5,679 bases of DNA from a virus (Duplodnaviria; Heunggongvirae; Uroviricota; Caudoviricetes). Numbering within the stretch: the stretch's first letter is position 1; every line of letters begins with the position of its first letter. Positions 1 to 5,679 of this stretch are shown here, in pieces. The notes under the pieces were generated by a model, which had not been told where the DNA came from, ran no database searches, and saw only the letters and a list, made by a program, of their open reading frames with translations. The position numbers and the translations under genes were made by a program. The stretch lies in the IMG/VR virus record IMGVR_UViG_2547132278_000010. One strand, written 5' to 3'.

Positions 1-1
1 A

Positions 2-3510
<3,509 letters not shown>

Positions 3511-3561
3511 TGGTGGAAAAAAAATTTTATATCGGTAAAAATAGGTAAGTATTTACTTAAT

Positions 3562-3582
3562 GGCGGGCAAGGATAGCCCGCC
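3562..3582 (+). promoter_or_regulatory. Perfect 7-bp stem-loop (GGCGGGC-aaggata-GCCCGCC) in the J-to-fibre intergenic spacer; possible RNA structure or processing/stability element, not a canonical intrinsic terminator
   Basis: Inverted repeat read directly: 3562-3568 GGCGGGC and 3576-3582 GCCCGCC with a 7-nt loop. There is no U-tract after it on either strand. It sits 6 nt upstream of the Shine-Dalgarno of the next gene. Confidence 0.3.
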
Positions 3583-3587
3583 AAATC

Positions 3588-3593
3588 AAGGAG
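3588..3593 (+). promoter_or_regulatory. Shine-Dalgarno sequence (AAGGAG) for the downstream fibre gene
   Basis: AAGGAG lies 10 nt upstream of the ATG at 3604. Confidence 0.6.
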
Positions 3594-3603
3594 CATATTC
3601 AAC

Positions 3604-5679
3604 ATGTGGTACAGGGAAGGTACTATCACATTTACACAGGGCAGCAATACTCTGGTTGGGGCAGGGACAGCCTGGAACGTAACAGCTAATGGTGTGTTGC
3701 CGGGGATGATCGTCATTGGCCCCGACAATAAGCTGTATGAGATCAAGCGCGTAACCAGTGATACGAACATTGTTCTCTCAGAACCTTATACCGGCGAAAC
3801 TCAGTCTGAAGTTCCGTGCCGAATCATTACGACCTATGAAGGCGACTTAACACAGTTTAGCGCGCGCTTTACTGCGCTAATGTCGCGTATGTCGGCTGAT
3901 TCCAAGTCCATACGCAGTTGGTTGACTGCGCTGGATGAGGTGACAATCGAGCGTGAAGACGGTACAGAAGTGACCGTTAAGCCGCTAATGCAGATCGTCA
4001 ACGAGCACAACGAAAACGTTGAGTGGTATAAAAATAACACTGACGCGATTGATGCTGCTGGCGACAAAGCTCGTGAGGCGGCGGCCAGTGCTGCCGCAGC
4101 AGCAAAAAGCGCCAATGCCGCTGGAGAAAAAGCCTCTCAAGCGTCTCAAAGTGCATCCGCTGCGGCATCCTCACAAAGTGCCGCAAGTGCGAGTGCAACT
4201 GCTGCGAAAAAATCTGAAACGAATGCTGCAGCGTCACAAAAATCTGCAGCCACTTCTGCATCCACCGCGACCACGAAGGCGTCAGAAGCTGCCACCTCAG
4301 CCCGGGATGCGGCGGCCTCAAAAGAGGCAGCGAAATCATCAGAAACGAGCGCAGCCTCGAGCGCCAGTAATGCCGCTTCCTCGGCAACGGCGGCAGGAAA
4401 TTCCGCGAAGGCGGCAAAAACGTCCGAGACGAACGCCAGGTCTTCTGAAACGGCAGCGGGACAGAGCGCCTCGGCTGCGGCAGGCTCAAAAACAGCGGCT
4501 GCGTCGTCTGCCAGTGCCGCGTCAACAAGTGCCGGGCAGGCCTCAGCCAGTGCCACCGCCGCCGGAAAATCGGCAGAAAGTGCCGCATCGTCTGCTTCAA
4601 CTGCCACAACGAAGGCTGGCCAAGCCACTGAACAGGCCAGCGCAGCAGCGAGGTCTGCTTCCGCAGCGAAGACATCCGAAACGAACGCGAAAGCGTCGGA
4701 AACCCGTGCAGAATCCTCAAAAACGGCAGCCGCATCGTCCGCCAGTTCGGCGGCGTCATCGGCATCATCGGCGTCTGCTTCAAAAGATGAGGCGACCAGA
4801 CAGGCGTCAGCAGCGAAGGGCAGCGCCACGACGGCATCCACGAAAGCAACAGAGGCGGCAGGCAGTGCGACGGCAGCATCTCAGAGCAAAACTGCTGCTG
4901 AATCCGCTGCGACCCGTGCGGAAGCTGCTGCTGATCGTGCTGAAGAGATTGCCGGTGCAGTTGCGATGGAAGACGCAAGCCTTACAACTAAAGGTGTTGT
5001 GAAACTTAGCAGTGCTGTCGACAGCACCAGTGAATCGCTGGCCGCAACGCCAAAAGCAGTTAAAGCAGCCAATGACAATGCGAATAGCAGGGTGCCATCT
5101 AACCGAAAAGTTAACGGTAAAGCACTGACTGCGGATATCAAATTAACGCCGAAAGATATTGGTACTTTAAATTCAATAACGATGTCTTTCTCTGGCGGGG
5201 CCGGGTGGTTCAAACTGGCTACTGTTACAATGCCACAAGCGAGTTCCATCGTTTACATCGCATTGATTGGTGGCGCTGGTTACAACGTCGGCTCCCCACA
5301 TCAGGCAGGCATTTCAGAACTGGTTCTACGAGCAGGCAATGGAAACCCCAAAGGGATTACAGGTGCTTTGTGGAAGCGTACAGCTGTCGGATTAACGAAT
5401 TTCGCCTGGATCAACACATCCGGCGATACATATGATATTTACGTTGAGATTGGCAATTATGCGACTCGTGTAAATATCCATTGGGATTGTACTGCAAATG
5501 CGACAGTTTCTATTTATACCTCGCCAACATATTCAGCGAGTAAGCCTTCCAGCGTTACCGATGGTGTTGTTTATACGATGTATAGCACACATCAGAAACC
5601 GACGCCGTTAGATATTGGAGCACTGCCAACAACCGGAGGAACAGTTTCAGGTCCGTTGTCTGTTACAGGTGGATTAACT
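3604..5679 (+). CDS. stf: Phage side tail fibre protein (Stf-like), 3'-partial (runs off the window end); mosaic: distinct N-terminal domain, lambda-Stf-like Ala/Ser/Thr-rich segment, conserved 'LAATPKAVK' fibre motif, then a globular beta-rich domain
   Basis: I translated frame 1 by hand from the ATG at 3604 (MWYREGTITFTQGSNTLVGAGTAW...) to nt 5679 (692 codons) with no stop. This ORF is absent from the supplied track, presumably because it has no stop inside the window. The segment AAKKSETNAAASQKSAATSASTATTKASEAATSARDAAASKEAAKSSETSAASSA... closely matches my recollection of lambda Stf (AAKTSETNAAASQQSAATSASTAATKASEAATSARDAVASKEAAKSSETNASSSA). KGVVKLSSAVDSTSESLAATPKAVKAAND matches lambda Stf / Rac StfR KGIVQLSSATNSTSETLAATPKAVK. 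It lies directly downstream of J, as in lambdoid phages. Confidence 0.85.
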   Translation, partial: MWYREGTITFTQGSNTLVGAGTAWNVTANGVLPGMIVIGPDNKLYEIKRVTSDTNIVLSEPYTGETQSEVPCRIITTYEGDLTQFSARFTALMSRMSADSKSIRSWLTALDEVTIEREDGTEVTVKPLMQIVNEHNENVEWYKNNTDAIDAAGDKAREAAASAAAAAKSANAAGEKASQASQSASAAASSQSAASASATAAKKSETNAAASQKSAATSASTATTKASEAATSARDAAASKEAAKSSETSAASSASNAASSATAAGNSAKAAKTSETNARSSETAAGQSASAAAGSKTAAASSASAASTSAGQASASATAAGKSAESAASSASTATTKAGQATEQASAAARSASAAKTSETNAKASETRAESSKTAAASSASSAASSASSASASKDEATRQASAAKGSATTASTKATEAAGSATAASQSKTAAESAATRAEAAADRAEEIAGAVAMEDASLTTKGVVKLSSAVDSTSESLAATPKAVKAANDNANSRVPSNRKVNGKALTADIKLTPKDIGTLNSITMSFSGGAGWFKLATVTMPQASSIVYIALIGGAGYNVGSPHQAGISELVLRAGNGNPKGITGALWKRTAVGLTNFAWINTSGDTYDIYVEIGNYATRVNIHWDCTANATVSIYTSPTYSASKPSSVTDGVVYTMYSTHQKPTPLDIGALPTTGGTVSGPLSVTGGLT
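4063..4975 (+). repeat. Low-complexity Ala/Ser/Thr-rich coding region of the fibre gene with imperfect internal repeats (AAK-[KT]-SETNA recurring at ~4201, ~4420 and ~4669)
   Basis: Direct reading shows GCN/TCN/ACN codon-dominated sequence with repeated KxSETNA motifs at ~220-240 bp spacing. This composition produces long stop-free alternative frames on both strands. Confidence 0.7.

Follow-up and report, generated by a model that had tools for sequence, protein, structure and literature searches.

The stretch of DNA analysed here (5,679 nucleotides from a tailed virus, hereafter the window) ends in a long open reading frame that had been read as a mosaic tail fibre, which raises the questions of what the gene encodes, whether its parts were exchanged between phages, and how its product would be carried on a virion. 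The 692-codon frame opens at an ATG at 3604, is unbroken to the window end at 5679, and continues beyond it; direct reading places a ribosome-binding site (AAGGAG, 3588..3593) 10 nt 5′ of the ATG, and this and all features below lie on the + strand. The translation contains every peptide quoted in the initial annotation and matches the start of the 1432-aa tail fibre of the E. coli phage-plasmid pR9-658-1 (WP_371128473.1) at 692/692 residues. The possibility of a hidden frameshift, raised in the same annotation, was ruled out by this identity with a full-length ORF. Across 2076 nt, the gene shows 99.1% to 99.9% DNA identity to phage Cyrano (pLF82; OV696614; 99.1%) and SSU5-like plasmids such as pR9-658-1, and Cyrano makes virions (PMC9928086). 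The synteny of the locus is that of the tail block of ~110-kb SSU5-like plasmids (tape measure, L, C40 peptidase, I, TipJ, fibre), with the fibre directly 3′ of TipJ in the window, pR9, pWP4, a7, and SSU5, as in plasmid-prophages of ~100 to 115 kb. Pfam and NCBIfam scans of the in-window 692-aa protein gave no family, Tandem Repeats Finder found no repeats in the window, and scans for promoters and terminators around the start of the gene were negative. We conclude that window positions 3604 to 5679 hold the first half of a side tail fibre gene that belongs to an SSU5-like E. coli phage-plasmid of the Cyrano/pLF82 type. SSU5-like phage-plasmids are common in clinical Enterobacteriaceae and medically relevant.

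The first ~150 residues had been described as unlike lambda Stf, and the measured identities agree: residues 1–150 show 1% identity to lambda orf-401 and 10% to phi458 Stf, compared to 81% to SSU5_021, with which they share the SSU5-type N-terminus MWYREGTITFT..., and 99% to another E. coli phage-plasmid (pWP4). Three phage protein families (phrog_3299, phrog_6129, and phrog_22609) match this segment with E below 1e-90, and phrog_3299 matches all three segments collinearly (E 6e-103, 6e-91, and 2e-155). The lambda-type collar domain (PF08400; StfN residues 1–91) was absent from the Pfam scan of the 692-aa protein, and a further protein search with the N-terminus returned short fragments of close relatives only. 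Within this module we distinguish an anchor domain of the SSU5 lineage (residues 2–76; 3607..3831) and, from the identity profiles, a stem or neck of the same lineage that is unrelated to lambda Stf (residues 77–150; 3832..4053). The anchor appears homologous to the N-terminal (OB-fold) attachment domain of the F-pyocin side fibre, since a profile search aligned fibre residues 2–76 to residues 3–74 of PDB 25ve (F2-pyocin side fibre; E 1.3e-6); the single sequence gave an E of only 0.0037, and the phmmer alignment reached residue 108. Judged by sequence only and over ~75 residues, residues 2–76 would thus represent an F-pyocin-type attachment domain.

The following ~300 residues had been called very similar to lambda Stf and Rac StfR, including an LAATPKAVK motif, and the comparison bears this out. 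The shaft (residues 151–470; 4054..5013) is composed of 38% Ala, 23% Ser, and 10% Thr, and is homologous to the trimeric coiled coil that forms the proximal part of lambda Stf, whose residues 102–393 are assigned to coiled coil by the Ur-lambda structure paper (PMC12617516). Lambda orf-401 is ~50% identical across residues 151–496, with a gap of ~100 aa (tblastn E 2e-68, 53% to 55% identity; 81.8% DNA identity over 379 nt), Rac StfR is 90% to 100% identical over residues 201–440, and phi458 Stf reaches 95% in the shaft. The fibre shaft is probably a lambda-Stf-type coiled coil, as this homology suggests. It runs into a collar or hinge (residues 451–502; 4954..5109) conserved in lambda Stf and the phage Mu fibre S, with LAATPKAVK at residues 479–487 (5038–5064) and residues 451–502 aligned to residues 105–156 of the Mu tail fibre S (PDB 5yvq/8ju3; E 1.5e-8).

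The initial annotation had read this patchwork as horizontal module exchange, and we found discordant identities in each segment, with an SSU5-like anchor, a shaft like those of lambda, StfR, and phi458, and a phi458-like globular module; the breaks agree with the three-segment split originally proposed. For residues 1–150, 151–200, 201–460, and 511–672, identities were 81%, 74%, 43%, and 27% to SSU5, 10%, 54%, 95%, and 99% to phi458, 99%, 96%, 78%, and 98% to the pWP4 plasmid, and 89%, 86%, 71%, and 27% to the a7 plasmid. These protein identities and BLAST boundaries replaced sliding identity values taken from a global alignment of the DNA, which were dropped as uninformative because unrelated DNA scored 55% to 70%. 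The first junction lies at residues 174–182 (4125..4148), where DNA similarity to lambdoid stf begins on the left: more than 20 stf genes of lambdoid phages start matching at gene nt 522–545 (lambda from window position 4125, phi458 from 4128), and between residues 151 and 210 the protein identity turns from SSU5-like into phi458-like. The second, at residues ~493–496 (5079..5091), marks where similarity to lambda, StfR, and many lambdoid stf genes ends on the right; many phage matches stop at gene nt 1478 (window 5081), and StfR identity drops from 90% to 12% across residues 441–560. At this point the alignment pairs fibre R496 with lambda R393, the residue at which a working lambda–P2 chimera was fused (PMC11338833), so that the junction sits 3 residues from the engineered site.

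Could a single SSU5-family lineage, with a constrained anchor, a fast-diverging shaft and knob, and a lambda likeness due to shared Stf ancestry, produce the same pattern with no recombination? SSU5_021 is collinear over residues 1–657 with the same order of parts, its knob at its own residues 451–601 matches with E 2e-45, and unequal divergence could therefore explain part of the pattern. Unequal divergence is nevertheless insufficient, because residues 201–692 are 95% to 100% identical to phi458 Stf (lambdoid) and residues 201–440 are 90% to 100% identical to StfR, both of which carry an unrelated lambda-type N-terminus. In addition, sister plasmids with a 96% to 99% identical anchor have differing shaft patches or no knob. 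Searches across 5426 E. coli genomes also separate the parts: the N-terminal DNA was found in 190 genomes, with 191/191 places on plasmids, compared to 4090 genomes and 6343 chromosomal places with the whole in-window gene as query, and 585 genomes (589 chromosomal and 119 plasmid places) with the knob DNA. Anchor DNA restricted to plasmids, with the remainder mostly chromosomal, argues against a single lineage, which we regard as highly improbable. The sequence comparisons instead support a recombinant fibre gene that combines a phage-plasmid anchor with a shaft and knob shared with lambdoid phages. Homologous recombination, acting in the repetitive DNA of the shaft and at the conserved collar, was probably the route of exchange, and any direction of transfer is one that we infer.

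The Gly- and aromatic-rich domain after the collar, here called the knob (residues 511–672; 5134..5619), had been taken for a distinct globular insert. The domain is real, but it is not an insert specific to this gene, being part of one contiguous block (residues ~180–774) common to the fibre and a lambdoid Stf; it is shared with phi458 (99%) and missing from lambda, StfR, and some sister plasmids. It is followed by the inter-module linker KPTPLDIGALPTTGGTVSGPLSVTGGLT (residues 665–692; 5596..5679), identified by a motif scan of the full-length relative, where a linker of this type (KPTxxDIGA) recurs at residue 981; a KPTxxDVGA linker likewise flanks the knob in distant homologues. The structure prediction suggested for this domain was carried out and yielded a predicted all-beta fold, which we read as a jelly-roll-type beta-sandwich with a beta core at residues ~523–658 (5170–5577). 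This model comes from a second AF2 run with a trimmed, more diverse alignment, which replaced a first run (residues 451–692, 48 close homologues) set aside for a pLDDT of 54.5 and low-TM Foldseek matches. The modelled knob can be superimposed on solved structures of the WceF/tailspike-type beta-sandwich class, and its best structural match is the trimer-stabilising domain of tailspike-like proteins and not a tip domain. The knob matches no Pfam family: scanning all 41 members of the knob profile gave scattered chance matches only, and a PDB sequence search with this 41-sequence profile gave nothing at E ≤ 10. An enzymatic (depolymerase) role was rejected, since the knob has no beta-helix and its best structural match is read as the non-catalytic sandwich of WceF.

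The knob is present in at least 306 protein clusters, and its position in the fibre bears on its role. In the 1432-residue relative it occupies residues ~511–672 with ~760 residues beyond, and this mid-fibre location (residues 513–671) means that it is not the distal receptor-binding tip. A knob that acts as the receptor-binding domain or primary glycan-binding adhesin and sets host range is accordingly improbable, given that a C-terminal chaperone and modules resembling Mu S and T4 gp34 are among the residues that follow, that a single fibre can carry two knobs and the knob can stand anywhere along it, that it is 98% to 99% conserved between fibres with differing distal parts, and that its modelled counterpart stabilises trimers. 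We consider the knob most likely a structural bead, and it may be a secondary, lectin-like binder of glycans.

Receptor specificity of the fibre lies beyond the window. The initial annotation had pointed to a downstream tfa chaperone gene, but no separate tfa gene follows the full-length fibre of pR9 (99.9% identical gene); its C-terminus matches PF13884 (Peptidase_S74) at residues 1320–1376 instead, with 27 bits against a cut-off of 22. By its sequence, this domain would be a self-cleaving intramolecular chaperone, located outside the window here. PDB matches of the full-length relative were Mu S/S′ and T4 gp34, with no R-pyocin fibre among them and hence no R-pyocin-like C-terminal tip.

The gene upstream suggests how the fibre may be attached. 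Positions 299..3510 hold the 3′ part of the TipJ central-fibre gene (J; PF09327, E 7e-42), which encodes a helical shaft of ~530 aa with a 33-aa period, as determined by periodicity analysis, and a C-terminal Phage_Tail_Tip domain. For J, the F2-pyocin central fibre (PyoF10; PDB 25vf) gave a match with E 5e-39 and lambda J one with E 7e-18; the alignment to the F-pyocin shaft convinces in its C-terminal beta-prism part only, and the docking kink is not demonstrably conserved. In F-pyocins, side-fibre residues 2–76 dock on the coiled-coil shaft (PMC13455828; bioRxiv 10.64898/2026.02.24.707460), compared to lambda Stf, which docks on the tube/Dit ring via an Ig-like collar domain (Stf anatomy: PMC12617516). 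The first case of attachment by shaft docking to be seen was that of F-type pyocins, in 2026. From the F-pyocin homology we infer that the fibre docks on the J shaft, which makes J its probable docking partner. In the arrangement we propose, residues 1 to ~175 would form a lineage-specific virion anchor whose first 76 residues correspond to an attachment domain that would, jointly with stem helices, dock on the central fibre's trimeric coiled-coil shaft; the fibre would dock likewise on the long helical shaft of the upstream-encoded J and not on the tube/Dit ring. Residues ~175–495 would provide the lambda-Stf-type Ala/Ser coiled-coil shaft, with the LAATPKAVK collar or hinge at its end, residues ~511–672 the predicted all-beta sandwich of the knob, followed by the KPTxxDIGA linker, and the trimeric side fibre would mediate the first, reversible step of adsorption.

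The J gene in the window is not intact. Positions 1..298 carry the IstB C-terminus (ORF 47–232; PF01695, E 8e-24) and form the right end of IS100 (IS21 family), which interrupts J at about nt 1514 of 4725; intact J genes begin to match at window position 299, and the IS100 annotation comes from H46. Another plasmid carries an independent IS100 insertion in J. Both insertions, and the fact that some SSU5-like phage-plasmids are non-inducible (PMC9600943), would suit a relic in a dead element, in which the broken J leaves the fibre without function and heading to decay. We judge this unlikely, as the fibre is identical at 692/692 residues to copies beside an intact J and window positions 299–3603 have 100% DNA identity to intact J genes. 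The IS100 insertion is therefore recent, with no decay visible, and a relic would concern the fate of one copy and not the identity of the gene. The fibre of the window's own element may never be assembled, given its IS100-split J.

Together, these results suggest with good confidence a recombinant SSU5-like fibre with a lineage anchor and a lambdoid shaft and knob, a probable structural role for the knob, and docking on J as indicated by homology. A more ambitious reading, that SSU5-like phage-plasmids hang their side fibres on the J shaft and that the knob represents a new, widespread lectin-like family making a second glycan contact, is tentative, and we give it somewhat less credence than its converse.

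Tail-fibre mosaicism is textbook biology, and the fibre gene has already been sequenced in more than 100 E. coli genomes; for these reasons the finding is an ordinary one. It nevertheless provides a natural, quantified case in which an extrachromosomal phage-plasmid lineage and chromosomal lambdoid prophages have exchanged modules, with a natural junction within 3 residues of a site chosen independently by engineers for working lambda Stf chimeras. The SSU5-like anchor is tied to the recently solved F-pyocin attachment, which gives a testable model of fibre carriage and re-targeting, and the knob is a common, confidently modelled fibre module that is absent from Pfam and PDB by sequence and could be curated as a new family. 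If docking on J is true, the N-terminal swap would indicate that the docking site has changed, and exchanging ~175 residues could re-target any lambda-type distal fibre to the virion.

Among known systems, the fibre of Cyrano and pR9-658-1 is the same gene, likewise directly after TipJ and with no difference inside the window, except that the J gene adjoining the window's copy is split by IS100. SSU5_021 of Salmonella phage SSU5 (YP_006906653.1) shares the synteny and the order of anchor, Ala/Ser shaft, collar, and knob; its shaft is only 43% identical, its knob is a divergent copy (27%) at the same position, its distal half is different, and SSU5 has a separate downstream adhesin gene (gp22) that is missing beside the pR9-type fibre. 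The Stf of phi458, Rac StfR, and lambda Stf have the Ala/Ser coiled-coil shaft and LAATPKAVK collar in common with the window fibre, whereas their N-terminus is a lambda-type Ig-like collar domain (MAVKISGVLKDG...) unrelated to it (1% to 10%). Lambda and StfR moreover have no knob and a separate Tfa chaperone, unlike the pR9-type fibre, which comes without tfa. The F-type pyocin side fibre (PyoF13/PA0643/PA0646; PDB 25ve) has a homologous N-terminal attachment domain of ~75 residues, and its central fibre has a coiled-coil shaft and a C-terminal beta-prism, the latter homologous to that of J. Beyond the stem the two side fibres are wholly different, the pyocin protein having 363 aa and an R-pyocin-like tip compared to 1432 aa, a lambda-type shaft, and many modules in the pR9-type, and docking on J is a proposal for the window fibre. 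The modelled knob also matches Pantoea stewartii WceF (6tgf) and Acinetobacter phage tailspikes (6c72, 8oq0, 5w5p, and 6e1r) structurally, at ~10% sequence identity and with no match at the sequence level. WceF and the tailspikes carry a beta-helix enzyme domain that the fibre lacks, and their sandwich follows the catalytic domain, whereas the knob lies between fibre segments.

The best DNA matches of the fibre gene, the side tail fibre gene at the end of the window, were circular plasmids of ~95-115 kb and Escherichia phage Cyrano (99.1%), and its match to Salmonella phage SSU5 (77.6%) was limited to the first 513 nt. Cyrano, which makes siphovirus particles, corresponds to pLF82 from the adherent-invasive strain LF82 (PMC9928086). 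The matching plasmids are SSU5-like phage-plasmids, and the gene order in SSU5 and in E. coli plasmid pR9-658-1 (pR9) is tape measure, minor tail proteins, C40 peptidase, tail assembly protein, TipJ and fibre gene. Within this known family, the fibre gene has already been described and annotated as a tail fibre. It occupies window 3604-5679 in frame 1 as 692 stop-free codons (N-terminus of the translation MWYREGTITFTQGSNTLVGAG...), with a ribosome-binding site, AAGGAG, read in the sequence at 3588-3593, and its frame is still open at the window end. A hidden frameshift was excluded by the uninterrupted pR9 counterpart, which continues to 1432 aa and, over the common part, shows 99.9% DNA identity and 692/692 matching residues. 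A perfect 7-bp GC-rich hairpin, GGCGGGC-N7-GCCCGCC (3562-3582), lies in the 93-nt intergenic region that follows J, the upstream TipJ central-fibre gene; it is without a T-run and no terminator was called. The composition described in the initial annotation was confirmed, with a shaft (residues 151-470) of 38% Ala, 23% Ser and 10% Thr and the LAATPKAVK motif at residues 479-487, followed by a Gly/aromatic-rich region. The shaft is overlapped on both strands, at window 3998-5002, by several long ORFs in antisense or alternative frames (326, 327 and 231 aa), which look like by-products of its GCN/AGC-rich composition; the lambda record has a similar antisense orf206b annotated at the same place.

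Tail-fibre mosaicism is a classic phenomenon, and identities quantified by segment indicate that the fibre gene is itself a mosaic. The SSU5 fibre is 81% identical to the fibre protein at residues 1-150, 74% at 151-200, 43% at 201-460 and 27% at 511-672, whereas phi458 Stf, a lambdoid side tail fibre with a lambda-type N-terminus (MAVKISGVLKDG...), shows 10%, 54%, 95% and 99% over the same segments. Rac StfR of E. coli K-12, also with a lambda-type N-terminus, is 90-100% identical at residues 201-440 and 12% past the collar that carries LAATPKAVK, and lambda orf-401 shows ~50% identity at residues 151-496 with a ~100-aa gap and nothing beyond 496. Both the non-lambda N-terminus and the likeness of the shaft to lambda Stf and Rac StfR, as first proposed, agree with these figures. 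Sister phage-plasmids display the same patchwork at a finer scale: the pWP4 fibre is 99% identical in the N-terminal anchor, 98% in the knob (the globular module at residues ~511-672) and only 78% in the shaft, and the a7 plasmid fibre (anchor 89%) is without the knob and ends in a C-terminus of lambda-Stf type, with a tfa gene downstream. Unequal divergence inside one fibre family is a simple alternative to mosaicism, prompted by the SSU5_021 alignment, which is collinear across residues 1-657, but such divergence cannot explain near-identity to fibres whose N-terminus is unrelated.

Among 5426 complete E. coli genomes searched segment by segment, the distributions were discordant, as the identities are. 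The N-terminal 520 nt were found in 190 genomes, at 191 plasmid and 0 chromosomal places; the whole in-window fibre gene gave 217 plasmid and 6343 chromosomal places (4090 genomes), and the knob DNA 119 and 589 (585 genomes). Chromosomal knob copies lie mostly inside genes annotated with a lambda-type N-terminal domain. In NZ_CP092233.1 (4466906-4467390), a chromosomal gene with the annotation TipJ family tail tip protein covers knob DNA (95.7% identical); either a J-fibre fusion or an annotation artefact could account for this. DNA similarity to >20 lambdoid stf genes begins on the left at gene nt 522-545 (window 4125-4148, residues 174-182), and for many of these genes it ends on the right at gene nt 1478 (window 5081, residue 493), 3 residues before R496. 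This residue aligned to lambda Stf R393, the fusion point of a functional lambda-P2 fibre chimera (PMC11338833). Segment identities and genome distribution are discordant between the anchor and the rest, supporting the mosaic reading of the initial annotation.

By homology to lambda Stf residues 102-393, which are a coiled coil (PMC12617516), the Ala/Ser region is predicted to be a trimeric coiled coil ending at a hinge. The shaft DNA is repetitive and GC-rich (58-65% GC), and collar residues 451-502 align to the solved phage Mu fibre S (E 1.5e-8). Exchange would occur at such homology patches, namely the repetitive GC-rich shaft DNA and the conserved collar, a model consistent with a published study that reportedly described relaxed homologous recombination between temperate phages and defective prophages.

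Residues 501-692, searched against 1.84 billion cluster representatives, yielded 306 knob homologues at E<=1e-3 (85 at E<=1e-30), in fibres of 400-2700 aa where the position of the knob varies widely and some of which hold two copies. A module HMM placed the knob at residues 513-671 in pR9, 517-674 in phi458, 514-671 in pWP4 and 451-601 in SSU5 (E 2e-45), and none was found in the lambda, StfR, a7 or L007 (plasmid NZ_JBWDPU010000001) fibres. The globular insert of the initial annotation is not private to this fibre and belongs to a block also present in lambdoid fibres (knob 99% identical in phi458). One homologue (P0121, 791 aa) has two near-identical tandem units of knob and gp34-like domain and another (P0165, 1422 aa) has an SSU5-type anchor and two divergent knobs in a single fibre, so whole modules duplicate within fibres. 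KPTxxD(I/V)GA-type linkers bracket the knob on both sides, which marks it as an interchangeable "bead" such as long fibres contain.

Neither a Pfam family nor a sequence match in the PDB was found for the knob, profile search included. Its AlphaFold2 model, from a diverse 41-sequence alignment, is all-beta and confident (pLDDT 94.5, pTM 0.88), with Pantoea stewartii WceF (6tgf) as best structural match. In WceF, the intertwined trimer that comes after the beta-helix has a short triple beta-helix and then an eight-stranded jelly-roll sandwich (residues 531-667; PMC7949094); we take the sandwich to be the part aligned with the model, the alignment being reported without coordinates. Foldseek against predicted viral structures placed the knob fold also in T4-like gp37 proteins, other fibres and EPS depolymerases. 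A common, uncurated module with a confident predicted fold is modestly new. Its role is most likely structural and trimer-stabilising, with a lectin-like secondary role possible. Motifs near-invariant across homologues of ~30% identity (MPQ, GGxG(F/Y)N, R.GN..PKG and NTSGD.YD(I/V)Y; window 5134-5619) could mark a trimer interface or a ligand/metal site. The knob is a mid-fibre bead, not a tip, and is unlikely to be the primary receptor-binding tip because ~760 residues come after it. In pR9, this distal half has homologues of Mu fibre S/S' modules (8ju3, E 5e-65), a homologue of the T4 gp34 C-terminal trimerisation domain (PF21446, E 1e-29) and, at the C-terminus, a Peptidase_S74 intramolecular chaperone (27 bits vs cut-off 22); no tfa gene lies downstream of the pR9 fibre. 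Receptor specificity would be encoded beyond the window; SSU5, as cited in PMC12312913, is reported to bind the LPS core via a separate small adhesin.

The right end of IS100 (IS21 family) occupies window 1-298, with the IstB C-terminus in ORF 47-232 (PF01695, E 8e-24), and J begins abruptly at nt 299, ~nt 1514 of the 4725-nt intact gene. IS100 sits within J, so the window's own central-fibre gene is broken and this phage-plasmid copy is probably defective as a phage. The insertion looks recent, since what is left of J still matches intact copies at 100% identity. The L007 plasmid has an independent IS100 insertion in J at a different position. Both pR9 and SSU5 have a cor gene, for a phage exclusion lipoprotein, ~1 kb beyond the fibre gene on its downstream side (locus coordinates 14230-14463 in pR9, 12237-12470 in SSU5). 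The target of Cor proteins is the FhuA receptor, and the gene may therefore give a hint as to which receptor the central fibre uses.

The J ORF matches lambda J residues 487-837 and the F2-pyocin central fibre (E 5e-39), and its C-terminus matches Pfam Phage_Tail_Tip. The lambda-J-like region is separated from this C-terminal domain by ~530 helical residues with a 33-residue period. At window ~1708-2971 (J ORF residues ~480-900) this shaft is Ala/Glu/Gln/Thr-rich and the period is strict (self-identity 38% at lag 33), equal to three hendecads, not heptads; no tandem repeats were detected at the DNA level.

A Pfam scan found no family for the N-terminal module of the fibre, which matched many tail-fibre PHROGs. 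A 12-sequence anchor profile searched against the PDB matched the F2-pyocin side fibre 25ve (E 1.3e-6, residues 2-76 to 3-74) and a 199-aa protein of entry 23gd (E 3e-6), which additionally holds a J-like protein matching the window's J. According to two independent structure papers, F-pyocin side fibres attach to the central fibre, on its trimeric coiled-coil shaft, through the very N-terminal domain matched by the anchor (residues 2-76, OB fold) and stem helices; the distal tail protein ring is not their binding site (PMC13455828; bioRxiv 10.64898/2026.02.24.707460). Because both partners are homologous to F-pyocin counterparts, we infer that the anchor docks on the J shaft of the virion, the docking kink not being demonstrably conserved; the non-lambda N-terminus would exist because the virion offers this different docking site. 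The homology of the anchor to the F-pyocin attachment domain is modestly new and bears on where the fibre docks. In length the J shaft far exceeds its F-pyocin central-fibre counterpart, and lambda J has no such shaft. Lambda Stf, unlike the F-pyocin side fibres on their central-fibre shaft, is attached by twelve Ig-like StfN domains, which encircle the gpV/gpM junction as a collar (PMC12617516).
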